A stretch of 63,873 nucleotides of DNA, counting the filler, from Aduncisulcus paluster (lineage: Eukaryota), in NCBI GenBank assembly GCA_024181965.1. It is 41 parts of 41 records of this genome, joined end to end, with 100 filler letters (N's around TTAATTAATTAA, not from the genome) between each part and the next. Parts side by side here need not be neighbours in the genome. Positions count along the whole stretch, not along the records: positions 25,894 to 27,512 come from BQXS01008665.1; positions 27,613 to 28,774 come from BQXS01008705.1; 39 more parts are not named here. The stretch is one strand, 5' to 3'. The notes under the pieces were generated by a model. That model did no database searches, was not told the DNA's origin, and worked only from the letters and a program-made list of their open reading frames with translations. Shown one piece after another: positions 3-63,873 of the stretch (within the stretch, counting starts at the first letter, position 1; each line of letters starts with the position of its first letter). A program made the translations under genes and the position numbers.

Positions 3-1004
3 GGTACTTTCAGACCAGTTGTTCCTGGTGAGGGTCTTGGCAAGCTAGTTGCAAATGGGCTAAAGGAGTTGATCATGCCTGCTGCCAAAGAGATTCTGGG
101 TGATTTCCTACAACTTGGAGTTATGTTCTCCGGTGGAACCTCAGTAGCTATTCATTCTGCTCTCATTGCACGTGAGGTTGTGAGGCGTCGAGAGGGGAAG
201 GAAATGTTTCTTGCTCTTCTTGACTTCTCAAATGCCTTCAACAGTGTGTCCGTTGAGGCAGTTTTGGCAGCTGTTAACCGTCTCACAGTCTCATCCACAA
301 TTAAAAAGGCTTTGCTAACTTATCTGCAGAGCATTCAAATCGTTCATGATGGTAAGGCCTTTGCCCTGTTGCGGGGTCTTTGCCAAGGTGATGTTCTTTC
401 CTCGTTACTCTTTGCCGTCACTATCCATCCTCTTGTTGAGAAGCTTCATAAGGATTGGGGTATGTTGAAGCTAAAAACCAACGAGAGTGGGGAGGATTCC
501 CCAACTATTGTGGAATTGCCACGCACGACATCTTATTTGGACGACATTTCTGTCATTGTGGACTCAGAAGATGACTATAAAAAGCTTCGCAGTTTTGTTG
601 AAGTGAATGCCACACAGTTTGGTCTTGAGCTTAATGCTGACAAGTCCAAATGTCTCCCACTTCACAAAACCCCCGGCGTTGAGCACATTGTTAAATTTAT
701 GGGAATCTCGCTGTCCAATTGTGACAAATTGATGCGCAGGGCAGCTAAAGAGGAACTGAATGATATCCATGCTAATGCCATCAAGGGCAAGAAAGGCTTT
801 GACCTCCAGAACTTCCTTGAAGTAATGAGGACAGTCGTTCTTCCCAGATACTCTCATCAAGTCTTGTTCGCCCCTGTTAAGGAGAGCTTCCTTAAGAATC
901 TTGATAAAGGAATAGCCTCTCTTTTCAAGGACATGATTGAAATACCTGTGGTCTCTACCACCAGGATGTCCTTACCTTTCAAACATGCTGGCCTCAATAT
1001 GAAG
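3..1004 (+). mobile_element. Non-LTR retrotransposon reverse transcriptase fragment, probably CRE/SLACS-like clade
   Basis: Open frame GTFRPVVPGE..QLGV..LLDFSNAFNSV..GLCQGDVLSSLLFA..YLDD..GLELNADKS..LPFKHAGL. RPxxxGE plus QxGV resemble CRE-clade RTs. Confidence 0.85.
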
Positions 1005-2424: not shown

Positions 2425-2959
2425 NNNNNNNNNNNNNNNNNNNNNNNNNNNNNNNNNNNNNNNNNNNNTTAATTAATTAANNNNNNNNNNNNNNNNNNNN
2501 NNNNNNNNNNNNNNNNNNNNNNNNCCTGTGTCCCTTATTAATCCTCCCTTTATCTCCTTTATACCTGCAAATACTTTTTAGAACAGCTATAATTATTTTC
2601 CTATGTTCCTTTTTTATCCTTAATTTATAATTTTTTAACCTTTAAAGCCCTTAATTAAGACTGAAATTAACTTCTTGAGTAGACCTCGAAAACGGCATTA
2701 GATTTGCTCTACGGCGAAGTCGGTTTTTTCGATCGTTTTCCTTAATAAAATTTAATCTCCAAATTAGTTTTTATTCCTTCTGAAGGTGCTAATCCTTCAA
2801 TCATTTCTTATTTTTCTTAAATTCGAAGATAATTTTCTCCTTTTAATTCGATAAAAACGCATTTATAATTTTTTCCTTGAAAACCTTATGAATTTTAATA
2901 AAATCCTTTATTTCAGCAAAATTTATCTGTATAATGCTTCTCCTTATTTAAATTGTTTG

Positions 2960-3643
2960 TTACTGACCTTTATCTAATTTCCCCTTCAAAGCCTTATTTC
3001 CTTCCAAATACTTCTCTAAAGCCTCACAGTCCTTCACTGTGGGATAATATTCCCAGGTATTCATCTCCTGACCGTAGTCTTTCCATTTAACAAGGAACTT
3101 TATCGGCAGTTTGCCTCCAAATCTATGTTTTATGATTTTTTCAACCACATATTCAGTCTCATCCTTCCCATTGATCAGGATTTCTTCTTCAACTGAGACA
3201 ACGGGGTCTGAAATGTATTTAACCATTCTCCTTACTGGGACATCCTCCGAGTCCCCCCCTTTTATGGGTTTTACCCTATATAAATGGTCTGTTATCCTTT
3301 CGACAACCAAATAAGGTCCTAATAATTTGCCTTGTTCCTTTTTTCCTTCTCTTTTCCTTCTTAATAAGATCTTTTCATCCTTCTCGAATTTTTCAGGCTC
3401 TTTAGCGGTAAATTCCTTTTTATCATCATGAGAACTAATTTTTTCATCTATTATCGTTTTTTCTATTTCCTTTTCCACGATTTCTTCAACTAATGGGTTC
3501 TTATCCTCTCCCAAAACCTCAGCTTCTCTTAAGAACATTGCATAAAAGGGCTGAGCATCGAATTGTGAGCTGTACCGTCTGTTAAGAGTCTCCATGACAT
3601 AATCACTGAATTCTCGTAAGTTCTTTTCTTTAGACATGTTCCA
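2960..3643 (-). mobile_element. Ty3/Gypsy (chromovirus) pol C-terminus: integrase end, GPY/F motif, chromodomain
   Basis: LLGPYLV motif. EYVVEKIIKHR..FLVKWKDY..NTWE chromodomain. Near-identical copy at 48931-50118. Confidence 0.9.
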
Positions 3644-16052: not shown

Positions 16053-18024
16053 AAATTCACTGCCCTCTCGTCTGTGACATATTCTGACCAGACCTGCCAT
16101 TGTTCTGCGTCTGTGTCCTCCGCTGATCACCAAGTGTGCCGTGAAGTGTATCCTGGTCGCTGGGCTGTTGAGTGCTGGCATGGGTACTATCTTGACAAAG
16201 CGAGTGGTTCCTGTGTTGCTGCGTGTGCTAGTGGGTATGTGTACGATACAGCCAGTGCAACGTGTGTGTCTTCCTCTAGCGCCATTGATGATGCCATTCG
16301 TTGTCAAGTGTGTGAGGGTCATTCCACTATGATGCCTGTTCTTGAGGAAGGCAATTCTTCCATCACATGTGGGTGTCGATCTGCCTGGTATGGAGATGAC
16401 TGTGATCAATTGTACGAACTCTAACTTTATATTCCCGATGATAATTTCAGAACCTTCGTCTGTGAAGCTGCAGACTATGCCGAAGGTACCTTGTGTGACA
16501 TTTCTGAGTTTGAAATGGCTGGGATTAGTGGGCAATTTTACTGGGGAAATTCTCATATCACCACGTTAGAATCTGCTCAAAATTTGATCAATAGTTATTA
16601 TTTGTATTTCAACAATACAGATATCACATCGGTCCAAATTCTTTCAGAACTTAAACAGCTTTGTCATTTGACTCTTGTCATGTGGGGTTCAACTTATTCT
16701 ATGAAGTTAACTGATTTTAACTCCCTGTATCCTTTGAATAGGCTTTTTACTCTCCGTCTTTATGGTAATGATCAAGTTTATGATATTTCTCTTTCCTTCA
16801 AGAGCGTTGCATTGAGATTCTTGATAATCGGATACTATGAGAATGAGATGATTCCTTTATGTCGATCTGAATCAAATGAAGATTTTATATCTTTCCTTAC
16901 CACTGTTTTCCCAACTCATGATCAAGATACCGATAATATTGCTCAATTTCACACCTCTAATAGTTGTCCACTTAACACTGACGATTACTTCTGTAGTCAA
17001 GACACATACCCAGACAAATGTCCATCTATTGTTCTTAATGAAGTGTATAATAGTGTTGATGAAGCTGATTATAAGGAGTGTTCTTTCATTGCTAAAACGA
17101 GTGGGTCTGTGATCGATGGAGACTTGAAATGTTATACAGTCCATGATGATAATGTGAGGGAGTATCTGATAAATGAATGTTTGCGCTATGGGACTGATGA
17201 TCTTAGCTCTGGAATAATCAGTGTTGCCACTATGAGAAGTGTATTGTCATGCCCATCTTCATCATTATCTTTGCAAGATATTGCTACTGCGTCATCCTTT
17301 TCCTCTGTAAATGCCCTCACAACACTTCAAGGTCTTGAGTATGCCACTTCACTGACCTCTTTGACCCTTGATGGATATGACTTGAGTGGAGATACTAATT
17401 CTAATGCTGAGTATGACAAGTTGGTTGTTCAGATCTTAGCAAAGGCTGTAACGATTTCAAGTGATTATGGTTCAATTGATTCTGGTCTGAGGATTTTGTC
17501 TGTAAGTGGATGTGGATTAACTGAAGTCAGTGATATATTGGACCTAACTCCAATTGTTTCTCATGATACTGCAACCCAACCCTTCAAGTTGACCACCCTT
17601 GATATCTCTGACAACTCTATCTCTGATGTATCCGTCTTTATCACTGAAGATATCTTCCCTGCTGATACTCTCACTACTCTTGATATCAGTGGCAACAACA
17701 TCTGTGACATTGATGGAATGGTGAGTGAGTTAGAAACCTATTTTTCTGCTACTTCTATTGTGATTACCTACTCTGACCAGACCTGCCATTGTTCTGCGTC
17801 TGTGTCCTCCGCTGATCACCAAGTGTGTCGTGAAGTGTATCCTGGTCGCTGGGCTGTTGAGTGCTGGCATGGGTACTATCTTGACAAAGCGAGTGGTTCC
17901 TGTGTTGCTGCGTGTGCTAGTGGGTATGTGTACGATACAGCCAGTGCAACGTGTGTGTCTTCCTCTAGCGCCGTTGATGATGCCATTCGTTGTCAAGTGT
18001 GTGAGGGTCATTCCACTATGATGC
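16053..18024 (+). CDS. Protist giant LRR/cysteine-rich repeat surface protein fragment, with one in-frame TAA at 16422
   Basis: ORFs 16074 and 16491 share a frame. LRRs (LTTLDISDNSISD, LQGLEYATSLTSL) and Cys-rich linkers. Internal repeat with period 1689 bp. Confidence 0.85.
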
Positions 18025-18124: not shown

Positions 18125-19125
18125 TTCAGAAAGCTCCATTCGATCAGCTCTCAGTGGATCTGTTTGGTCCTATTGATCCAGATGCACAGCTAGGATACAA
18201 GTACCTCACAGTCTTTGTGGATAACTTCAGCAGATTTGTTGAGCTCGTCCCAAGTGAAAGTACTACAGTGCTGGAAGCCAAACAGGCCTTATTACAGGTG
18301 ATAGGGAGGCATGGTTCACCTAAAACAATTCGAACAGATGGAGGATCACAGTTTACTTCCTCTATGTGGAGGGAATTGATGACGACGCTGGGAATTGAGC
18401 ACATAGTAACTACTCCAGATCACCATCAAGAAAATGGTCAAGTAGAGAGAGTCAACCGAGAGATATTGAGGCAGCTTAGGCTCCATTTTGCGGCTGGATG
18501 CTCAAAAACCGACTGGGTCAAGTTAGTCCCCATCATTATGGGTACTATAAACTCTCGGGGATCAGAAAGAACAGGTAGAAGCCCAATGGAAATCCTGTAT
18601 GGCCAGAAAAGGAAACCTCATAAGCTGTTTAAAGAATCTTCTGGTGCAACCCCGGAGAGATGGGAAAAGATTCTGAGTTACAGAGAGGATGTGAGGGATG
18701 ATGTTGAGTCTGAGGTTCGAACATCGGATGAAAAGGTCGTCTCGCAGAGAGAACAGTCTCAGACAGATTTTATACCCTTCAAACCTGGGGAGAAAGTACT
18801 TTTGAGCCGGAGGAAACCCGGAAAGAAGACAGACACCATCAATCTTGGTCCTTTTGTGGTGCTTGAGAAGACAAGCAGTTTTTATTACAGAGTAGAGTCT
18901 GTTAATGGAGGAAAGAAACAAAAGGTACATGTTTCCAGAATGAGATGTTATAAATCGAGTGCATCGGAGGAAGAGGAGAAAACAGCAGAAGCTGCTGACG
19001 ATCAAGAATACAAGGTTGAACGTATTGTGATGCATCGAGGAAGAGGGAAGAAGAACATCAAGTTCAGGGTAAAGTGGCAGGATTATGGGATGGAAGATAA
19101 CACCTGGTTGAGCTTCAAAGAGGTG
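18125..19125 (+). mobile_element. Ty3/Gypsy integrase core + GPF + chromodomain
   Basis: SVDLFGP, VDNFSRF, IRTDGGSQF, ENGQVERVNR, LGPFVV, EYKVERIVMHR..VKWQDY..NTW. Confidence 0.95.
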
Positions 19126-25793: not shown

Positions 25794-26094
25794 NNNNNNN
25801 NNNNNNNNNNNNNNNNNNNNNNNNNNNNNNNNNNNNNTTAATTAATTAANNNNNNNNNNNNNNNNNNNNNNNNNNNNNNNNNNNNNNNNNNNNGATGGAA
25901 AGCTTAAAGATATGTCTAACCCCGACTTCCAGTGCCCAGAGCATCACGTTCCATATGCCCAATAGGGCTAGGTTTATTTCTGAATTCTTTTTCCCTGCTA
26001 GGTTTTCTTTCTTAAATAAATATTATTACTGTACTATACTCTCGACCGAAGAAATTGCAAAAGCGATCCATGTGGCTGAAAGATCCGTCGAAAG

Positions 26095-26342
26095 TGTAAG
26101 ATGTTCGCGACATCTATATAGTATTAGGCCTTTTATAGCTCAGCTGGTTTGTCAACAGTGTTGCAACACTGAAGGACCCGGGGTCGAATCCCGGAACGCG
26201 CAAATATCGGGGGCTATAATAAATGGGTGCAATGCCAAAACTGCGGTTGGAAGATGCTATAACGTCCTAATAGGGGCAGTGTAAGATGTTCGCGACATCT
26301 ATATAGTATTAGGCCTTTTATAGCTCAGCTGGTTTGTCAACA
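26095..26342 (+). mobile_element. 248-bp TRIM-like miniature LTR retroelement
   Basis: Identical 63-bp direct repeats 26095-26157 and 26280-26342 (TGT...ACA), TSD GAAAG at 26090-26094 and 26343-26347, purine tract AATAGGGGCAG before the 3' repeat, 122-bp internal region. Confidence 0.88.
26129..26201 (+). promoter_or_regulatory. tRNA-derived Pol III type-2 promoter-like element inside the TRIM
   Basis: A-box TAGCTCAGCTGG (26136-26147). T-arm CCGGG-GTCGAAT-CCCGG (26178-26194) at tRNA spacing. Acceptor and D stems do not pair. Confidence 0.7.
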
Positions 26343-28874
26343 GAAAGATGGGTTGCAAATTGGAAAAAAAGGGCAATTAGAGGAGGAACAGGGTACAAGA
26401 AGAAGAGTTCGGACAATAACGGACGAAATCTCAAGGTCAATCAAAGGAAAGGTGGAGGCTGAGCCAGGGATAATGTTGGATGAAATCCAATCATTTATAA
26501 GGGCTACGCATCACACGGAATTAGCCTTATCCTCAATCTGCTCCTTTCTTCACCGATCAGGTTACACTTACAAGTAGATTTCATGCATCGCGCGAAGGGT
26601 TCAGAGGAACCAGATACTAGCATTTGAAAAAAAAATGGATCAGGTCATTAAGATAAATCACGGAACAAGGAATTTTGTTTTTGTAGACGAAACAGGGGTA
26701 GACCAAAGAACGATGCTCAGAGAAAGGGCATATGGGAGAAAGGGAGAGAGGATTCGAGTTCTCTCAAACAAACAACTGAGGAGCAAGAGAATCTCGTATA
26801 TTGCCTTTCTAGGCATGAAAGGATGGATCCTCTTCGATAGAATAGTTGGCTCACATTGTGTCGCCACATTTCTATCCTCGGTACGAACACTCCTGGCATC
26901 GGGAGCGGTTATCCCCCATACAAAGAATCACATATGGGTATTGGATAACTGTTCTATCCATACGAGTCCAAAAACCATCGCATTCCTGAAGAAAAATGGG
27001 ATTTACCCGTTCTTTTTACCCACTTACTGCCCTTTTTTGACACCGGTCGAAAATGGGTTTAGTGTCATTAAAAAAATATTAAAACGCACTTCTCCAAGCG
27101 AAATAACGGATGCATATGGCCTTTGTCGACAAACCGATCTTGCCTTCTTCAGCAAAAGCGATGTCTGTGCCTACAATCCCAAACCCCATTATTCTCAAAC
27201 CAATTGGATACATAAAACAGTACATGCCATTGGTTATAGAGAAGATGGATATTATAGATCTAAGACAACTCAAAAGGTTCTCGACTTAAAAGAAGATGAT
27301 CCACCATTTTCATTCCCTCATGAAGGAATTGAATATTGGGTATCAGATGAAAATGGTATATTACATTTAGAATAAATTTTTATAAATATACATTTATTTA
27401 ATTAACAGATTGATAGAAAACAAAATAGATATAATCTCGAGGTCTTGGAGATTTCTTTCAAAGAGACAAGGAGAACTTCCCCTTATTCCTCACTTCCAGG
27501 TGATATTTGATCNNNNNNNNNNNNNNNNNNNNNNNNNNNNNNNNNNNNNNNNNNNNTTAATTAATTAANNNNNNNNNNNNNNNNNNNNNNNNNNNNNNNN
27601 NNNNNNNNNNNNTGACAAAAATATCCCTCCACCCCTCATAGAGTTTTCACCGAAAATCTGAGGTCTCTAGCTTAAGAAACCATGGAGATACATCATCCTT
27701 GAGGGAGGGCTTACCAATACCCCCCCTCTCATATATATGGTATCCGGGGGTGCACGATTCTAGCGCGACCCCCAGAAACCTAATTGTTTCAAACGGGCCT
27801 TGAGCGAACTCTGATGACCAAAACACAATGATAGGAGACATTCATTAGATTATAGACATATATTGTAGATTAAGCTCGTTTATCCCTAGAGCTTTTCACC
27901 AAACGAGAAAGACAAAAAATGCACTTTTTCTGAGGCGGAAGCCACAACCAAAATTTTAAGGGTTCATGGTCAAAACATATATTAACTACATATGTCTACA
28001 TTACAGCATATATAGAAGTCGAGACCTGAAGAGGAGAACTTGAGCACACCCATGACAATTCTCATGTTAATTACAAGATCGAGCTCTTCCCTCATAATGT
28101 AGTAATTACTTGAAGATATTATGTTTATATCATATGTCACCATACAACTCTCTCCCTCCTCACCCCATCTATTACTCTCCAGCATCCTCTCATATCTCTT
28201 GACTCAATTTCCAACATCTCACCAGGTGATTATTTTCCCTCATAAAGACTACTTCTCCCCCAAATGAGAACTATTATATAATAGTGCTAAACCACTACTA
28301 TATAGTGTGCTTAAATCATATTACTTTGTTCTTTATATACCTCCTTTCCCCCTCAATATCTGCTTTATCACATTTTCCCTCATATTATTAACTAACTATC
28401 TTTTTATCAACTATTCGTATTAAAATTTTACTTTACTTAAATCATATTTTGGTGTTTATAAACACTCTCTTTCTTTACTTTATACTTTCTTCCCAAAAAA
28501 AAAACAAAACAAAACAAAAACAAAAAAATACCAAGCAGAAGCAATAGAACTCTTCCTAACCCCTCATGACCTTAAGAGGCTTGTCCCACAGTGATTGGGG
28601 GCGAATAAGGAACTGTGATATTGCCTCTCTGTATCCTGATTGGGCTGTGAGCCTCAGATGTCGCCCCAAGAGCAATAGCTCCAGGCCGGTTTAGGTGTTA
28701 TCCTAACTAATAAACTGTTATACTACTGTACTATACTGTACTATAATCTTTCTTTGTACTATAATCTTTCTTTGNNNNNNNNNNNNNNNNNNNNNNNNNN
28801 NNNNNNNNNNNNNNNNNNTTAATTAATTAANNNNNNNNNNNNNNNNNNNNNNNNNNNNNNNNNNNNNNNNNNNN

Positions 28875-43127: not shown

Positions 43128-44131
43128 TAATCACTTCAAAAGACATCATTTGGACTGACATTCACCAACAATGTTTCGATAGATTGATGGATTTACTCGA
43201 AAATAATATGAGTTTATATACATACGATAATGCATTACCACTAATTCTGAGGACAGACGCGTCCTCGTATGGTTTAGGCGGCATGCTCGTTATGGTGAAG
43301 GACGGAAAGGAGTTACCTATTAATTTCTTCGCCAAGAAATTCTCGAAACAAGAACAGAATTGGACCACTATTGAACAGGAGGCGTTCGCAGTAATATATG
43401 GTCTTAGAAAGAACAGGCAGTTTTGCTTGGGCAGGCATTTCCGAATTGAGACCGATCATAGGAATTTGACGTTTGTATTGAAAAGCGAGTCAGCAAAGTT
43501 AATGAGATGGAGACTAGAGCTTGCAGAATACACGTTTGAAATTGCTCACGTATCCGGAGTGGATAACAAGATGGCGGATTATTTATCTAGAAAACATCAG
43601 CCAGTTAAAGAAACGGTCACCGCAAAATCATTTATTTCACCGAAGATTGAACCCTCGATTCGGGAAAAAGTTATCTCTGAACAAAAGAAGTTAACGGAAA
43701 ATCCCGAGAAACTCATCAGAATTGGTGAGTTCCTGGACGATCAAGAAGGACGAATCGTCATCCCTGATGATTCGGAAGATCTACAGAAAGAGATCATACA
43801 TCTGTTCCATGCTCATGTTTTGGCAGGCCATTACAGTGCTACATATACAGCGGCAAGGATCATAGAAGCTGGGTTTTATTGGAGAAACATACGCGTAATG
43901 GTCAAAACAGAAGTCGACAAATGTCCGATTTGTCAGAAAAACAAACCTCTGCATCCACCCCCGATCATGGGAACGATAATGAAAAGAGGAATATTTGAAG
44001 AGGTGAGCATTGATTCTTTGGGTCCAATTACTACTGATGAAGAAAACCCAATCAAATATATTATTGTGATAATCGACAATTTTTCGAGATTCGTGGAGCT
44101 AATACCATCAGAATCTACAACTGCAAAAGAA
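43128..44131 (+). mobile_element. Ty3/Gypsy pol: RNase H + integrase HHCC zinc finger + start of core
   Basis: LRTDASSYGLGG, EQEAFAV, ETDHRNL, NKMADYLSR, H..GH..CPICQ, SIDSLGP, IDNFSRF. Confidence 0.96.
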
Positions 44132-46102: not shown

Positions 46103-46262
46103 GGAGGTATTTTACTCAATGTATCCTCACGGTGGGACGGTTTCAGACAAAACACCAGCCGAGATAAGGGACTTAGTAACGACAATAGACCGATGTCTTC
46201 GACGCATGAATTGCATCAAGTGAGCACACACACATCCAGCATTACGGCACAGCATTCTAAAG

Positions 46263-46336
46263 TAGGGCGGGCGGGGCTCGAACCCGCGACCAATGGATTA
46301 TGAGTCCACGGCTCTAACCAACTGAGCTACCGCCCC
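46263..46336 (-). tRNA. tRNA with CAT anticodon, most likely tRNA-Ile2 (lysidine), actinobacterial
   Basis: GGGGCGGTAGCTCAGTTGGTTAGAGCCGTGGACTCATAATCCATTGGTCGCGGGTTCGAGCCCCGCCCGCCCTA. Full cloverleaf, CCA not encoded. Confidence 0.95.
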
Positions 46337-46562: not shown

Positions 46563-47609
46563 AGATGCTTCGCTGGAGAATCCAATTATCAGCCTATTCC
46601 TTCAACATTTCATACATTCCAGGCAAAGAGAATATTTTTGCTGATTATTTGTCGAGACTCCAAGATATTCAAACAATCGCAACGATTGACAGTGAAACTA
46701 TGACAGAAAAAATATGGAAGACTCACAAAAAACTGGGTCATGCATCAGCAGACACTATTATCTCCGAACTCGAAAAACATCAACCTGTTAACAAAGAAAC
46801 AAAGAAATTGGCCAAAGAATTAATACAAAGTTGTACTCAATGTCAAAAAGTAGCCCCTTTTCGAGGAACAAAAACAACAGGACACCTCATCGCATCATCA
46901 ACGTTCGATTGCATCTCTGTCGACACTATTGGCGAAATGGACGAAGACAAACTTGGTAATCGTTACATTATAGTTGCTGTAGACGACTTTTCTCGCTTTG
47001 TTTTCATCAGGCCATACCAAGATTGTACGGCAAGCTCTGCAATCTCTTTTTTCAAAGATCTTTTTGCTCTTTTCGGAACACCAAACAAGGTTCGAACGGA
47101 CAATGCAAAACAATTCATTGCAAAACCGACGGAAGATCTCCTGAAAGAAAGAGAAATCGAACATATCCTAACGATTCCATACGACCACAGCGGCAACGGA
47201 AAGTTGAACGCGTCAATCGGGAAATCAGACGATTAGAACGAATTTATAAAATGGAAAATGATATTTGGAACTATCAAACATTTACAGCATACTGTATGGA
47301 AGCGATAAACTGTCGAAAACATTCAAGTACCTCTTTTGCTCCTTTTTAAGTCATGTTCGGAAGAAAATCACAAGATATTTCAATTTTAAAGGATTATACA
47401 AAAGAATTAGAAAAGAAAAGGGAAGATATAGAAGCAGAAATTGCAAAATCCCAACCAGAATCGAAAACTCCAACAACATTCAAAATAGACGACCTGGTAT
47501 TGTATAAACCTGATAAAATTTCAAAGAAATCGGCTCCACGGATGCAAGGTCCATTCATTATATCAGAAATACTATCTCCATACAGATATCGTATAAAACC
47601 AATAGACGG
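46563..47609 (+). pseudogene. Decayed Ty3/Gypsy RNase H end + integrase
   Basis: NIFADYLSR, H..GH..CTQCQ, VRTDNAKQF. One-base frameshift in NGKVER near 47200 and in-frame TAA at 47347. Confidence 0.9.
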
Positions 47610-47709: not shown

Positions 47710-48597
47710 GTCGTACCTCAGTGGGAGTTTTTTTGCTCGGCGATTAATTCAAAGGGCAATCTGGGTTTGATGAAGTTTCGGCTTCGTCTGCCCTTATTCT
47801 CATCTCATTCACTGTCAAAGGTCCCTGGAGTTGGATTATCCAGAGAGAGGGACCATCGACTTTTAGGGAGAGCACGCCGCTTTCTATGTTTGATTTTCGT
47901 TTGTTCCTTCGGGGGCTTCTTGGATCTTATGTAGAGTTTTTAGGCGTTGTCTGAAGTGTACGAAACGAGCCTTGAAAAGTCACGGGGCGAGACGCAGGAT
48001 TGATTCTCATCCGTACCCACAACCGCAGCCGGTCTCCAAGGTGAACAGCCTCTGGTCAAGCAAGAAAAAGCATGTGAGGGAAGTCGGCAAAATTGCTCCG
48101 TAACCTCGGGATAAGGAGTGGCTCTGGCGACAGGCTAGCAGGGACCCTTTGGGGTGTTTTATGTCTAGTGCATAGTGCTTCGGTGCTATACGCTGGCACG
48201 TTGATGTTGATACTTGTATTTTCGGATTCGTGTTGTTAATTGTTGACGTAGTTTGTGGTTGGAGCAGCTGTACCTTCGGGTTTGGCTGAGCCCCCTTATT
48301 GTGTCCAGTTAGCGAGCATTTAACTTGCCACCATTGTGGGAGCTCTTTTGTACTTGGTTTTTTAATCGAGTATTGGGGGCCTTCCTCTCTATCGAAGCTG
48401 TCAAGTCAGAACTGGAACGGACTAAGGAGAACCCGACTGTCTAGTAGAAACATAGCCTTCAGATGGCCATAACAGGTGTTGACTGAAGGTGAATTCTGCC
48501 CAGTGCTCTGAATCGTTACGTTGAAGTGATTCAATTAAGCGCGGGTCAACGGCAGGAGTAACTATGACTCTTGAAAGGTAGCCAAATGCCTCGTCAT
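47710..48597 (+). rRNA. Eukaryotic LSU (28S) rRNA fragment, copy 1
   Basis: GGTCTCCAAGGTGAACAGCCTCT, GGGAAGTCGGCAA, TTCTGCCCAGTGCTCTGAAT, GAGTAACTATGACTC, GGTAGCCAAATGCCTCGTCAT. Confidence 0.97.
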
Positions 48598-48830
48598 TTA
48601 TCAAATAAGTGACAGTTGGTTGGTAACAACTGGCTAGTCGATGATTGTATATGTATGGATATAATTATCTGGCGACACTGTCAAATTGCGGGGAAGCCCT
48701 TAGAGCTCTACGTACCGCCTATAACTGGAAACAGAGTATGAGTGGGAATAGTAATACTATGAAATCTCATCATATAGGCAGGTGGTATAATGGCCACTGT
48801 ATGGTAATAATCGTAGAGATTGGGTAATCC
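48598..48830 (+). ncRNA. Group I intron, 5' part (L1949)
   Basis: Matches the intron at 62178 onward, including P1 and the P element AAATTGCGGGGAA. Confidence 0.93.
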
Positions 48831-48930: not shown

Positions 48931-50118
48931 CTTTGAAATATTCTATTTCACCCCTTTCCTTGCTTCACATATATCGTATTTTCCTTGTAAAAATCCTTAT
49001 CCTGTGTCCCTTATTAATCCTCCCTTTATCTCCTTTATACCTGCAAATACTTTTTAGAACAGCTATAATTATTTTCCTATGTTCCTTTTTATCCTTAATT
49101 TATAATTTTTTAACCTTTAAAGCCCTTAATTAAGACTGAAATTAACTTCTGGAGTAGACCTCGAAAACGGCATTAGATTTGCTCTACGGCGAAGTCGGTT
49201 TTTTCGATCGTTTTCCTTAATAAAATTTAATCTCCAAATTAGTTTTTATGCCTTCTGAAGGTGCTAATCCTTCAATCATTTCTTATTTTTCTTAAATTCG
49301 AAGATAATTTTCTCCTTTTAATTCGATAAAAACGCATTTATAATTTTTTCCTTGAAAACCTTATGAATTTTAATAAAATCCTTTATTTCAGCAAAATTTA
49401 TCTGTATAATGCTTCTCCTTATTTAAATTGTTTGTTACTGACCTTTATCTAATTTCCCCTTCAAAGCCTTATTTCCTTCCAAATACTTCTCTAAAGCCTC
49501 ACAGTCCTTCACTGTGGGATAATATTCCCAGGTATTCATCTCCTGACCGTAGTCTTTCCATTTAACAAGGAACTTTATCGGCAGTTTGCCTCCAAATCTA
49601 TGTTTTATGATTTTTTCAACCACATATTCAGTCTCATCCTTCCCATTGATCAGGATCTCTTCTTCAACTGAGACAACGGGGTCTGAAATGTATTTAACCA
49701 TTCTCCTTACTGGGACATCCTCCGAATCCCCCCCTTTTATGGGTTTTACCCTATATAAATGGTCTGTTATCCTTTCGACAACCAAATAAGGTCCTAATAA
49801 TTTGCCTTGTTCCTTTTTTCCTTCTCTTTTCCTTCTTAATAAGATCTTTTCATCCTTCTCGAATTTTTCAGGCTCTTTAGCGGTAAATTCCTTTTTATCA
49901 TCATGAGAACTAATTTTTTCATCTATTATCGTTTTTTCTATTTCCTTTTCCACGATTTCTTCAACTAATGGGTTCTTATCCTCTCCCAAAACCTCAGCTT
50001 CTCTTAAGAACATTGCATAAAAGGGCTGAGCATCGAATTGTGAGCTGTACCGTCTGTTAAGAGTCTCCATGACATAATCACTGAATTCTCGTAAGTTCTT
50101 TTCTTTAGACATGTTCCA
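48931..50118 (-). mobile_element. Second copy of the chromovirus pol 3' end and 3' UTR (CDS 49435-50118)
   Basis: Same protein as 2960-3643, with only a handful of nucleotide differences. Confidence 0.92.
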
Positions 50119-60171: not shown

Positions 60172-60317
60172 NNNNNNNNNNNNNNNNNNNNNNNNNNNNN
60201 NNNNNNNNNNNNNNNTTAATTAATTAANNNNNNNNNNNNNNNNNNNNNNNNNNNNNNNNNNNNNNNNNNNNCATCGACTAGCCAGTTGTTACCAACCAAC
60301 TGTCACTTATTTGATAA

Positions 60318-61367
60318 ATGACGAGGCATTTGGCTACCTTTCAAGAGTCATAGTTACTCCTGCCGTTGACCCGCGCTTAATTGAATCACTTCAACGTAAC
60401 GATTCAGAGCACTGGGCAGAATTCACCTTCAGTCAACACCTGTTATGGCCATCTGAAGGCTATGTTTCTACTAGACAGTCGGGTTCTCCTTAGTCCGTTC
60501 CAGTTCTGACTTGACAGCTTCGATAGAGAGTAAGGCCCCCAATACTCGATTAAAAAACCAAGTACAAAAGAGCTCCCACAATGGTGGCAAGTTAAATGCT
60601 CGCTAACTGGACACAATAAGGGGGCTCAGCCAAACCCGAAGGTACAGCTGCTCCAACCACAAACTACGTCAACAATTAACAACACGAATCCGAAAATACA
60701 AGTATCAACATCAACGTGCCAGCGTATAGCACCGAAGCACTATGCACTAGACATAAAACACCCCAAAGGGTCCCTGCTATCCTGTCGCCAGAGCCACTCC
60801 TTATCCCGAGGTTACGGAGCAATTTTGCCGACTTCCCTCACATGCTTTTCTTGCTTGACCAGAGGCTGTTCACCTTGGAGACCGGCTGCGGTTGTGGGTA
60901 CGGATGAGAATCAATCCTGCGTCTCGCCCCGTGACTTTTCAAGGCTCGTTTCGTACACTTCAGACAACGCCTAAAAACTCTACATAAGATCCAAGAAGCC
61001 CCCGAAGGAACAAACGAAAATCAAACATAGAAAGCGGCGTGCTCTCCCTAAAAGTCGACGGTCCCTCTCTCTGGATAATCCAACTCCAGGGACCTTTGAC
61101 AGTGAATGAGATGAGAATAAGGGCAGACGAAGCCGAAACTTCATCAAACCCAGATTGCCCTTTGAATTAATCGCCGAGCAAAAAAACTCCCACTGAGGTA
61201 CGACCCGAGGTCGTCACGTGCGTTTGCGTTACCGCCTGTTAAAGACGATTCTCACTACAGGACTATAAACCTGTTTCCCTTTCGATACGTGTATCAAAAA
61301 AAGATGTAAAATTATTTTATCCTTCATTACGACACACACCTGCAAAGAGCGTTTGCTTGTCTCTTAG
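60318..61367 (-). rRNA. Eukaryotic LSU rRNA fragment, copy 2 (intron start at 60272-60317)
   Basis: Reverse complement of copy 1, extending further 5' (CGAAAGGGAAACAGGTT). Confidence 0.97.
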
Positions 61368-61467: not shown

Positions 61468-62637
61468 GTTTGATTTTCGTTTGTTCCTTCGGGGGCTTCT
61501 TGGATCTTATGTAGAGTTTTTAGGCGTTGTCTGAAGTGTACGAAACGAGCCTTGAAAAGTCACGGGGCGAGACGCAGGATTGATTCTCATCCGTACCCAC
61601 AACCGCAGCCGGTCTCCAAGGTGAACAGCCTCTGGTCAAGCAAGAAAAAGCATGTGAGGGAAGTCGGCAAAATTGCTCCGTAACCTCGGGATAAGGAGTG
61701 GCTCTGGCGACAGGATAGCAGGGACCCTTTGGGGTGTTTTATGTCTAGTGCATAGTGCTTCGGTGCTATACGCTGGCACGTTGATGTTGATACTTGTATT
61801 TTCGGATTCGTGTTGTTAATTGTTGACGTAGTTTGTGGTTGGAGCAGCTGTACCTTCGGGTTTGGCTGAGCCCCCTTATTGTGTCCAGTTAGCGAGCATT
61901 TAACTTGCCACCATTGTGGGAGCTCTTTTGTACTTGGTTTTTTAATCGAGTATTGGGGGCCTTACTCTCTATCGAAGCTGTCAAGTCAGAACTGGAACGG
62001 ACTAAGGAGAACCCGACTGTCTAGTAGAAACATAGCCTTCAGATGGCCATAACAGGTGTTGACTGAAGGTGAATTCTGCCCAGTGCTCTGAATCGTTACG
62101 TTGAAGTGATTCAATTAAGCGCGGGTCAACGGCAGGAGTAACTATGACTCTTGAAAGGTAGCCAAATGCCTCGTCATTTATCAAATAAGTGACAGTTGGT
62201 TGGTAACAACTGGCTAGTCGATGATTGTATATGTATGGATATAATTATCTGGCGACACTGTCAAATTGCGGGGAAGCCCTTAGAGCTCTACGTACCGCCT
62301 ATAACTGGAAACAGAGTATGAGTGGGAATAGTAATACTATGAAATCTCATCATATAGGCAGGTGGTATAATGGCCACTGTATGGTAATAATCGTAGAGAT
62401 TGGGTAATCCGCAGCCAAGGCCTAAGGATTCTATTGTATAGTATCTATGGTTGCAGTCCACAGACTAAATGGCAGTGGAGTGGGAAAGTAGCAATACTTT
62501 CTTGCTTTAAGATATAGTCGAACCCCCATGGAGACATGGTCCACCCTTAAGCAAGGTGGAGACATATTTATATGTTGGTATTAGTGTTAATTTGTGACGC
62601 GCATGAATGGAACAACGAGGTTCTCACTGTCCCCACA
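61468..62637 (+). rRNA. Eukaryotic LSU rRNA fragment, copy 3, interrupted by a group I intron
   Basis: Exons join as CCTCGTCAT|TTAATTTGTGACGCGCATGAATGG. Confidence 0.97.
62178..62586 (+). ncRNA. Complete 409-nt group I intron, subgroup IC1, at LSU position 1949 (E. coli numbering)
   Basis: P1 GTCAT/GTGAC with U.G pair. P AAATTGCGGGGAA, Q AATCCGCAGC, R GTCCACAGACTA, S AAGATATAGTC. P3 CACTGTCA/TGGCAGTG. GNRA-capped P8 and P9. Terminal G. Confidence 0.95.
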
Positions 62638-62737: not shown

Positions 62738-63873
62738 GACAGAAGAGGTTTAACAGATGAACAGACAGAAGGAATCGACAGAGAACAGAGAATCAGAGCA
62801 GAAAACAGACGTGCTAATGGAAAAGCATGGGAAACAGTGACTGAAACCAGAGCGAAGGACAGAGCGGACAGAATTCGACAGAACAGACTCGCAGATGGAC
62901 AGGACCTAAAAGAATTTACTGTGGAGAGGAAATCTGATACATATTCTTTTGAGGGAGAGGAATTTGAATGTGCCAGGATGACTCCGAACGAACTTCAGGA
63001 AATTTTCGGTTATAAAGAGATAGAAACGCTATTGAAGACCATGGGACCAGAAGTTGCTGCGCAGGTAAATAAGGTTGCTGAAATTTTGGGAGGCTTGTGT
63101 GTTGAAGATGTACATTTGTTTAAAGACTCCATTGCAGGAGTAAAAGAGATTAAATATTACGTGAAGTTCATAATAGCAATGCTAAAATCAGTGTCAGTGT
63201 TGTTTACTGGATTAGGGAAATCCCCCGCAGTGGTAGAACCTTTCAAAATTGTTGTGACAGATCCAACAAAGGTTATTTCCGAGAAAAAGAGAAAAGTGAG
63301 ATCAGACTGGAAAGATGAAATCAGAGACCAGTTAAATACTTTATTTAAAAAGGGTATAATCAGATACAGTAACACAGATTTTCACAGTGCTACAGTGATT
63401 GCGCCGAAAAAGAACGGAAAACTCAGATTATGTGTGGATTACAGAAAATTAAACAAGATAACAGTGGGTATGGGACAGATTCTACCTTTAATTCACGATT
63501 TATTCAGAGTAATGGAAGGAATGAAATATTTTACAGTGCTGGACTTGACTTCAGGTTATCATCAGATCCCGATGGCCGAAGACAGTATTAAATATACTTC
63601 TTTTGTGACAGAATTCGGACAGTATGAATATACAAGACTACCGTTTGGATTGAAGAATGCCCCTCCATTCTTTCAGGATACGATGAACCGTGTTTTGTCA
63701 GGATTGATCGGAACAGTGTGCTGTGTTTACTTAGACGATATTGTTGTGTTCGGCAGAACAATGGCGAGCATGCTATTGAGTTTATTTGCAGTGTTAATCA
63801 GATTAAAACAGTTCAATATGAGAGTGAATCTCGAAAAGACAGTGATCGGTGCAAAAGAAATCGAATTTCTTGG
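62738..63873 (+). mobile_element. Ty3/Gypsy reverse transcriptase (partial, open to the window end)
   Basis: PKKNGKLRLCVDYRKLN, LDLTSGYHQI, RLPFGLKNAP, VYLDDIVV. Absent from the ORF track because there is no stop. Confidence 0.97.

Follow-up and report, generated by a model that had tools for sequence, protein, structure and literature searches.

What is the short sequence that interrupts a transposase gene in the assembly of Aduncisulcus paluster (GCA_024181965.1), and by what route could it have arrived there? The window, that is, the whole stretch of DNA analysed, spans 63,873 nucleotides and is made up of 41 small contigs separated by linkers of the form N44-TTAATTAATTAA-N44. It does not represent one chromosome stretch: the GC content of its contigs ranges from 27 to 69%, and it is a mixture of organisms. 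The insertion lies on an unplaced contig of 1619 bp (25894-27512). An initial annotation, made from the sequence alone, had described it as a miniature LTR retroelement resembling a terminal-repeat retrotransposon in miniature (TRIM). We compared this contig with contigs from two public runs, X1 and X2, which come from one sample, possibly the window's own source, and were matched at likeness 85; X2 is presumed to be RNA, which is a guess only. The evidence base comprises a single full-length copy, carried by an unplaced contig, and contig-level read support from this one sample.

A repeat search gave a single match, an exact 66-nt direct repeat at 26093-26158 and 26278-26343 with a spacing of 185. 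It consists of a 63-nt LTR and of 2+1 coincidental nucleotides, two because the target-site duplication and a purine tract both end in AG, and one because the duplication starts with G, as does the internal part. The whole element, on the + strand like every feature described here, occupies 248 nt at 26095-26342: a 5' LTR (26095-26157) with TGT..ACA ends, an internal part of 122 nt (26158-26279) and a 3' LTR (26280-26342) identical to the first, both LTRs being delimited by the repeat search and by script. It is flanked on the 5' side (26090-26094) and on the 3' side (26343-26347) by the 5-bp duplication GAAAG. The outer coordinates (26090-26347), the identity of the repeats, the length of the interior and the flanks had all been given by the initial annotation, and each was reproduced from the sequence and by script. 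With up to 3 mismatches allowed, the window contains a 34-nt piece of the LTR at two places, whereas 100 shuffles gave 0 matches. Neither LTR taken alone is bordered by a duplication (GAAAG versus GTGTT around the 5' LTR, GGCAG versus GAAAG around the 3' LTR), hence the 248 bp moved as one unit.

The internal part is crossed by read-through frames but contains no separate ORF. At its end, the tract AGGGGCAG (26272-26279, found by script) abuts the 3' LTR as a weak candidate for a polypurine tract (PPT). The initial annotation counted it among the hallmarks of the element; it is real but weak and short, with 7 purines out of 8, and alone it is not significant, as 8.5% of the contig's 8-nt windows are equally rich in purines. 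The identity of the LTRs had also been taken as a sign of recent insertion, which is weakly founded: 0 differences over 63 nt bound their divergence only at less than about 4.8%. The reverse orientation was rejected, since the purine tract is lost in it and the D and T arms described below match the tRNA consensus on the + strand only.

The interrupted gene, a degenerate Tc1/IS630-type transposase, extends over 25895-27375 according to its ORFs, a domain search and the run contigs. Its DDE_3 domain lies at 26578-27375 (E 2.4e-19), and its helix-turn-helix is split by the element. Two further lesions are present: the A7 run at 26364-26370 carries a frameshift, and a TAG stands in frame at 26575-26577. 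In the run contigs the former is an A6, with one base fewer at 26364, and position 26575 has A for T, which gives AAG. Removal of the element with one duplication yields ..ERSVE|RWVANWKK.. in one frame, as had been predicted, and the run contigs carry the same joined form. This empty site was among the evidence that the initial annotation had called for. The joint runs from 26089 to 26343, skips 253 nt and leaves 5 letters that fit either side, which correspond to the duplication. In X2 the shorter side of the joint measures 48 letters, and its contig has 0 other letters; the X1 joint has just 25 letters (<31) on that side. The borders are thus fixed independently of the frame argument. On the X2 contig with the empty site, the A run lacks one base as well, at the same depth (3742.2), so the helix-turn-helix and the remaining transposase stand in one frame and the insertion is the derived state.

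When two distant Tc1 homologues were compared with the contig by tblastn, no alignment crossed the insertion point, their N termini having diverged too far; it is therefore the sequence and the reads that carry the frame argument. The Tc1 protein gave 46 pattern matches in a metagenome contig collection, with 0 confirmed relatives. Among the matches listed, no run contig bridges the filled junctions, and support for the filled state thus comes from the assembly and from complete X1 coverage (30 of 30 bins).

The LTR also occurs on its own at another locus. Record 9 of X2, 317 nt long, consists of 68 foreign nucleotides, 26094-26157 and 185 foreign nucleotides; its upstream flank ends in ..AGTTG and its downstream flank starts with AGTTG.., a second and different 5-bp duplication. 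The duplication is of exactly 5 bp at both loci for which both flanks were read. This solo LTR stops at 26157 and so marks the right border of the 5' LTR, while in X1 at least two contigs whose flanks are different start precisely at 26095 and mark its left border; 49 of the 223 X1 contigs fit both LTR places. The expectation of copies with different duplications was thus borne out by the solo LTR, whereas direct observation of a full-length copy is limited to one. Summed contig depth in X1 reaches about 57-59 thousand in the LTR bins, 18-23 thousand in the internal bins and 4.4 thousand in the last four; these sums are not copy numbers and at most hint that the internal part is repeated too. 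X2 has zero cover over 26164-26325. Exact-pattern scans of metagenome and genome contig collections with the LTR and with the internal part returned 0 matches.

Altogether, the empty site, the solo LTR and the foreign flanks at the repeat establish a real, repeated, integrase-type insertion; the proposed check for an artefact or a lack of other copies came out in favour of mobility. The element has terminal direct repeats, is shorter than 1000 bp, is non-coding, ends in TG..CA, shows a fixed-length duplication that differs between insertions, and is repeated in the genome, with an empty site and a solo LTR. It is best read as a TRIM, and the initial reading of a miniature LTR retroelement in a Tc1 transposase is upheld by the DDE_3 domain, the empty site and the solo LTR.

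The border between the 5' LTR and the internal part has a further property. There, ARAGORN at the relaxed setting -ps80 calls an Ala/Cys-like, tRNA-like module of 75 nt (26128-26202), for which Rfam gives a sub-threshold match in the tRNA clan; its first 30 nt belong to the LTR and the other 45 nt to the internal part. The relaxed setting gives two other calls in the same 329 nt, and default ARAGORN gives nothing at the module site. The anticodon loop has 6 nt, the acceptor stem 5 of 7 pairs, and the D stem is broken. In Rfam the module matches the tmRNA tRNA-like domain with 13.5 bits (E 0.0028), below the gathering score of 47, compared with 70.2 bits for the window's true tRNA-Met. A working tRNA gene is ruled out, as the module passes no curated tRNA detector.

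It contains motifs of a putative internal pol III promoter. A box A-like motif, TAGCTCAGCTGG, lies inside the 5' LTR (26136-26147), with a second copy in the 3' LTR (26321-26332); reading TAGCT..TGG, it agrees with the form in Helenus, a group of tRNA-bearing TRIMs discussed below. A box B-like motif, GGTCGAATCC, forms the T arm at 26182-26191 in the internal part, 25 nt past the LTR end; it occurs once per element and reads GGGTC, one change from the Helenus form. Exactly 28 nt separate the D-loop from the T stem, matching a class I tRNA. In the window, this pattern of boxes A and B is present here and in the true tRNA-Met only, against 0.02 matches per shuffle. The module's anticodon arm is a perfect 16-nt palindrome (26156-26171, found by script) that spans the border between LTR and internal part, and its loop, U-UGCA-A, is self-complementary. 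No thermodynamic fold was better than those of shuffled sequences (z -0.35 to -0.96), be it of the whole element, of the predicted 192-nt RNA, of the 75-nt module or of the hairpin.

Other ways of explaining the insertion were considered. The 63-nt sequence could itself be a very small DNA element that has inverted ends of 3 nt (TGT/ACA) and makes 5-bp duplications, the 248 bp being a composite of two copies moved by its outer ends. The lone copy with its own 5-bp duplication in record 9 of X2 agrees with this, as does the higher summed X1 depth in the LTR bins than in the internal bins, a sum that does not give copy number. We know of no transposase that acts on such a unit, and the tRNA-like module passes without a break out of the repeat and into the internal part; with the 28-nt spacing between D-loop and T stem, this indicates that repeat and internal part are one element and no chance composite. 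The direct orientation and the lone copies are moreover what LTR-LTR recombination is expected to give, by the account of solo LTRs in PMC3281118. We regard this explanation as unlikely.

Less probable again is a tRNA-derived SINE mobilized by a LINE, carrying a partial internal tandem duplication (about 1.36 units of 185 nt). A tRNA-like head with boxes A and B would suit a SINE, and RVT_1 fragments of unassigned class do occur in the window (3-1004 and 62738-63871). Yet an A-rich or simple-repeat tail is absent, the TGT..ACA ends are sharp, the duplications measure exactly 5 bp at both loci with both flanks read, and a lone 63-nt copy has a duplication of its own. The SINE2 class was likewise rejected: the element has terminal direct repeats, no tail and no duplications of variable length.

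A slightly weaker case still can be made for the single integration of a longer-than-unit cDNA whose template was a small RNA of 185 nt, either circular or in tandem, the insertion amounting to 1.34 turns of the 185-nt unit. Arbitrary breaks would be expected from such a molecule, but the lone 63-nt copy and the flanks starting at 26095 fit fixed LTR ends; a search of 25900-26600 for ribozyme families, the hammerhead included, gave no match at E up to 1. A retrozyme, in which a hammerhead is expected in the LTRs, is rejected on the same search. Finally, an immobile assembly artefact or local tandem duplication is hardly credible: the contig is indeed unplaced, only 1.6 kb long and part of a repeat family, and the run contigs disagree with it at 26575 and in the A run, but the empty site is precise, with a 5-nt overlap, the same 63 nt stand at another locus with another duplication, and the repeat is held by 49 X1 contigs.

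We now propose a full account of the locus, to which we give a probability of about 0.72: a TRIM inserted in a Tc1-type copy, mobilized by enzymes acting in trans, with putative models for its pol III transcription and its priming. On this account, the TRIM inserted into a single member of a multi-copy Tc1-type transposon, duplicating the 5 bp GAAAG. As it codes for nothing, it must depend on an autonomous LTR element that supplies reverse transcriptase and integrase in trans. Its RNA would be made from the tRNA-derived pol III promoter within the element; with box A in the LTR and box B just internal, this promoter would be complete only in the 5' LTR followed by the internal part. We propose U3 at 26095-26127 and R with U5 at 26128-26157. 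The run of four T residues at 26316-26319 in the 3' LTR is the candidate pol III stop, because no other T4 follows box A; the element's one further T4 is its twin at 26131-26134. The predicted RNA would reach from 26128 to 26319 (about 192 nt) and stop at the T4 of the 3' LTR, with an R of about 7 nt. Against the pol III model, a T4 run lies only 4-7 nt past the proposed RNA start, and the polymerase would have to read through it.

On sequence inspection, a TGG-type primer-binding site (PBS), complementary to a tRNA 3' end, is absent after the 5' LTR. Any primer-binding site must lie at 26158-26171, and the anticodon-arm palindrome is its putative counterpart: minus-strand synthesis would be primed at this sequence, directly after the 5' LTR. 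The most likely primer would be a half-tRNA, as in Ty5, copia and the fungal Helenus elements. Self-priming of the Tf1 type was rejected, because the sole complement of the RNA 5' end, a 9-bp stem with 26211-26219, is placed 52 nt past the LTR end and misfits the LTR border. Solo LTRs would be left behind by recombination between the two LTRs.

A bolder version of this account, which we consider possible but doubtful, makes the insertion a minimal 'SINE-like LTR element', with one tRNA-derived module serving as split promoter, as R and terminator, and as primer-binding site. The promoter, with box A in R-U5 and box B internal, would leave solo and 3' LTRs silent; the first 7 nt of the module and the T run would act as R repeat and terminator; and the palindromic anticodon arm would bind the 5' half of the parent tRNA.

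Among known systems, the tRNA-like module across the LTR border shifts the closest kind from plain TRIM/SMART elements to the tRNA-bearing TRIMs Helenus and TRIMp3, as these are presented in PMC10886601; for TRIMp3, our literature search found Kojima 2024 only (PMC10886601). Like Helenus, the TRIM studied here is non-coding, with two short LTRs, a tRNA-like part with boxes A and B and no working tRNA. The 5-bp duplications (in fungal and plant Helenus) and the solo LTRs are also common to both by the account given there, in which the PBS of fungal Helenus is complementary to an anticodon loop and not to a tRNA 3' end (PMC10886601). The differences drawn from the same account concern position and size. 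The tRNA-like sequence of Helenus lies wholly in the LTR and is described as not complementary to its PBS, whereas here box A is in the LTR and box B internal, with the putative PBS inside the element's own anticodon arm; Helenus measures 311-1263 bp, compared with 248 bp, and conserves GGTTC in box B where we read GGGTC (PMC10886601).

The grass element SMART/FRetro129, by its description in PMC3281118, has in common with ours the TGT..ACA ends, a 5-bp duplication, an internal part of 122 nt, the lack of coding capacity, and solo LTRs even though the repeats are very short. It differs in its length of 292 bp, its 85-bp repeats, and a PBS and PPT held in common with a Copia partner; a tRNA-like promoter does not figure in that description (PMC3281118). 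The initial annotation had given about 290 bp as the usual lower size of TRIM/SMART elements, a figure now outdated: CcaRetroS9 of Cajanus cajan, the smallest TRIM in the report of PMC4717578, has 233 bp and 52-bp LTRs and falls in the same size class. At 248 bp, our TRIM is below the 311-bp floor recorded for Helenus and near this minimum; being 15 bp longer than CcaRetroS9, it sets no size record (PMC10886601, PMC4717578, for the elements these works include).

Cassandra, a 5S-bearing plant TRIM, has, as is proposed here, a pol III promoter from a small RNA gene; its transcript is reported to begin in the 5' LTR and to end at a stop within the 3' LTR, with an R of just 18 bp (PMC10886601). 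In that report its promoter is of 5S type and not tRNA-like, it lies wholly in the LTR of an element of 565-860 bp, and transcription was shown experimentally, whereas for our element it is predicted (PMC10886601).

Possible traces of an autonomous partner lie on other contigs of the window. Ten ORFs were scanned, and rve+Chromo, RT_RNaseH+Integrase_H2C2, rve and RVT_1 fragments were found, but no Copia-type domain; half-tRNA priming is known from Copia lineages in the account of PMC10886601. Fragments of Ty3/gypsy-type pol genes are present in the same contig set, with no LTR, PBS or PPT to compare; as the window mixes organisms, they need not share the element's genome. The integrase and the Tc1 transposase have their best named relative in the same fornicate protist, with 44% identity each.

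The distribution of Helenus set out in PMC10886601 covers fungi, animals and one plant, not protists. The initial annotation knew of no such element in this kind of protist, and our literature search likewise found no TRIM description from protists or Carpediemonas-like organisms. If our account holds, tRNA-bearing miniature LTR elements would extend to a free-living anaerobic protist lineage; in the bolder version, this would also be the first TRIM described from a metamonad-like protist. The element's build, with a border-split promoter and a PBS inside the tRNA-like module, would then be more compact than any described. The element would offer a small and testable model of the minimal cis sequence for an LTR retroelement, and SINE-like pol III heads would prove combinable with reverse transcription of the retroviral type; in the bolder version, all cis requirements of LTR-type retrotransposition would be contained in an RNA of about 190 nt. 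Elements of this sort may also produce tRNA-like false positives and disrupt genes, here that of a transposase.

A single exact direct repeat of 66 nt was found, at positions 26093-26158 and 26278-26343. Reading the sequence base by base, and then checking it by script, we resolved it into a 248-bp element with two identical LTRs of 63 nt: the target duplication GAAAG (26090-26094), the 5' LTR with its TGT..ACA ends (26095-26157), an internal part of 122 nt (26158-26279), the 3' LTR (26280-26342) and the second GAAAG (26343-26347). The three surplus bases of the 66-nt match are border coincidences. All borders proposed in the initial annotation are confirmed by this reading; its purine tract does abut the 3' LTR, but is not significant as a polypurine tract. 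A 34-nt piece of the LTR, with up to three mismatches, occurs at two places only in the window and in none of 100 shuffles. Neither 63-nt repeat alone carries a duplication of its own, which indicates that the 248 bp transposed as one unit.

The element interrupts a Tc1 gene. The ORF at 26578-27375 encodes a DDE_3 (Tc1/IS630-type) transposase (E 2.4e-19); among its named relatives, a Tc1-like protein from the fornicate Aduncisulcus paluster comes closest (44% identity). The transposase frame reads ..STEEIAKAIHVAERSVE before the insertion and RWVANWKK.. after it; joined, they form a helix-turn-helix resembling the N terminus of the distant homologue P0003. In a tblastn of the distant homologue against the contig, the alignment did not extend to this region. 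In the window's copy, the A7 run 26364-26370 also shifts the frame, and a TAG stands in frame at 26575-26577.

We mapped contigs of two public runs of one sample, X1 and X2, on the element's contig (25894-27512, 1619 bp, 40% G+C) at a likeness of 85. The sample may be the window's own source. In its contigs, which drop rare variants, 80% (X1) and 32% (X2) of the sampled words of the element's contig are present. One X2 contig joins 26089 to 26343, skipping exactly 253 nt with five letters that fit either side; its shorter side is 48 letters long, with no other differences except an A run one A shorter (same depth, 3742.2). The same joint occurs in one X1 contig, where the shorter side, 25 letters, falls short of the tool's 31-letter rule. 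In the empty form from X2, the shorter A run brings the helix-turn-helix into frame with the remainder of the transposase. Across the run contigs, the A run is A6 at all depth in X2 and half in X1, and position 26575 is A instead of T (AAG, Lys) at all depth in both. Within a Tc1 family whose copies are otherwise open, the window's copy is thus a minor and degenerate one; since the empty form is in frame and carries AAG, the open, uninterrupted Tc1 is the common form and the insertion the derived state.

A second locus was found in X2 record 9 (317 nt), composed of 68 foreign letters, positions 26094-26157 and 185 foreign letters. Its left flank ends in AGTTG, the final G coinciding with 26094, and its right flank begins with AGTTG: here the 63-nt repeat stands alone, away from the Tc1 site, bounded by a 5-bp duplication that differs from GAAAG. 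Five letters would match by chance once in 1024, which speaks against a chimeric path through the graph. In addition, two X1 contigs with mutually different foreign flanks both begin exactly at 26095. Of 223 X1 contigs, 49 fit both repeat places, with 13 further loose ends; among the X1 and X2 contigs listed, none bridges the filled junctions.

Taken together, terminal direct repeats with TGT..ACA ends, duplications of 5 bp at each of two loci and a lone repeat bear the signature of LTR retrotransposition by an integrase, with later recombination between LTRs. These data show an LTR-type insertion that is mobile and repeated, codes for no protein and duplicates 5 bp of its target. The empty site, the solo LTR and the DDE_3 match support the miniature LTR retroelement in a Tc1 transposase suggested earlier. 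The empty-site paralogues proposed as a check were found in both runs; the search for copies with different duplications gave the solo LTR, and one full-length copy was seen directly.

Absent from the initial account is a tRNA-like module of 75 nt at 26128-26202. Rfam's tRNA clan matches at 26143-26195 (tmRNA tRNA-like domain, E 0.0028; at 13.5 bits, far under the gathering score). ARAGORN finds no tRNA there with default settings. Once its threshold is relaxed, it draws an 'Ala|Cys' cloverleaf of 75 nt whose T arm is perfect and whose D stem is broken; the acceptor has 5 of 7 pairs, and an anticodon stem of 5 bp closes a loop of 6 nt. It then also makes two other, unconvincing calls within the same 329 nt. 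Box A (26136-26147) lies in the LTR and box B (26182-26191) in the internal part. A box A .. box B pattern, composed after the module was seen, matches only the module and, as positive control, the window's genuine tRNA-Met (0.02 per shuffle). This tRNA-Met (CAT) lies at 46262-46336 (-), on a contig of 53% G+C. The module's predicted folds do no better than shuffles; it is therefore no functional tRNA. The border of the LTR, as set by the reads, splits the module after base 30, within the anticodon stem.

A duplicated tRNA-SINE could also place tRNA-like sequence in a repeated unit; against it stand the absent tail, a duplication fixed at 5 bp and the existence of a solo copy. Were the element the cDNA of a small circular RNA, its fixed ends would be hard to explain, and no ribozyme was found in 25900-26600 at E up to 1. 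That the 248 bp are a composite of two 63-nt micro-elements is spoken against by the module, unbroken across the LTR border. An assembly artefact, raised at the outset as a refuting case, is contradicted by the X1 and X2 contigs. Altogether, this protist element is TRIM/TRIMp3-like (TRIM, terminal-repeat retrotransposon in miniature) and has its tRNA-like module split; in the literature searched, we found no description of a TRIM from protists.

SMART/FRetro129 has the same anatomy (PMC3281118): its 292 bp comprise 85-bp repeats with TGT..ACA ends and an internal part of 122 nt, it is flanked by a 5-bp duplication, and solo LTRs occur. The initial annotation put TRIM/SMART elements at about 290 bp or larger; a Cajanus TRIM of 233 bp with 52-bp LTRs is on record (PMC4717578), so that a smaller TRIM than ours is known. 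The closest known kind is Helenus (Kojima 2024, PMC10886601), TRIMs with tRNA-derived sequence in their LTRs, which with the 5S-bearing Cassandra and Ajax make up TRIMp3. Helenus measures 311-1263 bp and has been reported from fungi, animals and Selaginella; fungal members have 5-bp duplications and a PBS complementary to a tRNA anticodon loop, like Ty5 and copia (PMC10886601). The idea of a tRNA-like part in a TRIM is common to both, the layout is not: here the LTR border runs through the module, whose own anticodon arm takes in the PBS position, and the whole is shorter than any Helenus described there.

Transcription would begin near 26128 and terminate at 26316-26319 in the 3' LTR, a T4 run and the only one downstream of box A. 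The predicted RNA would be ~192 nt, with an R of ~7 nt; R is just 18 nt in Cassandra RNA (PMC10886601). A second T4 run 4-7 nt after the proposed start counts against this model. With box B internal, the promoter would be complete only where the 5' LTR precedes the internal part. As the LTR ends at 26157, minus-strand priming would have to begin at 26158-26160, where TGG is absent. A perfect 16-nt palindrome lies at 26156-26171; a 5' tRNA half that terminates in an anticodon loop of the U-UGCA-A type could pair with it. Half-tRNA priming is given as a Copia trait (PMC10886601); the lack of a Copia domain among 10 window ORFs scanned counts against it here. Enzymes would presumably be supplied in trans. 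Other window contigs carry LTR-retrotransposon pol fragments: rve+Chromo (18127-19125), RT_RNaseH+Integrase_H2C2, that is RNase H and an integrase zinc finger (43130-44131), rve, the integrase core (46565-47233), and two RVT_1 pieces (3-1004 and 62738-63871). The best named relative of the chromo-integrase is a Tf2-like polyprotein of Aduncisulcus paluster (44% identity), which speaks for the same fornicate host and makes no link between the elements.

The window consists of 41 contigs of 1-3 kb each, joined by N44-TTAATTAATTAA-N44 linkers, with a G+C of 27% to 69%; it therefore gathers unplaced contigs of several organisms into one bin, and adjacency within it carries no meaning. The element's contig is absent from the nearest genome available for comparison, a 2.4-Mb bacterium (G001). 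A bacterial genome shares 21% of the window's sampled words. Eukaryotic LSU rRNA fragments lie on three contigs (48079-48639, 60283-61364 and 61654-62636), one with a group I intron at 62192-62541 (111.5 bits); 47888-48187 is identical to 61468-61767. Contigs 2525-3643 and 48931-50118 are near-duplicates (300 nt at 99% and 121 nt at 88%), their longest ORFs having 227 aa each, identical over the first 60 residues, which were those compared. The two ends of contig 16053-18024 form a 259-nt direct repeat of 98% identity (16077-16335 and 17766-18024) around a 533-aa leucine-rich-repeat ORF; the contig may represent genes arrayed in tandem, or else a piece assembled as a circle.
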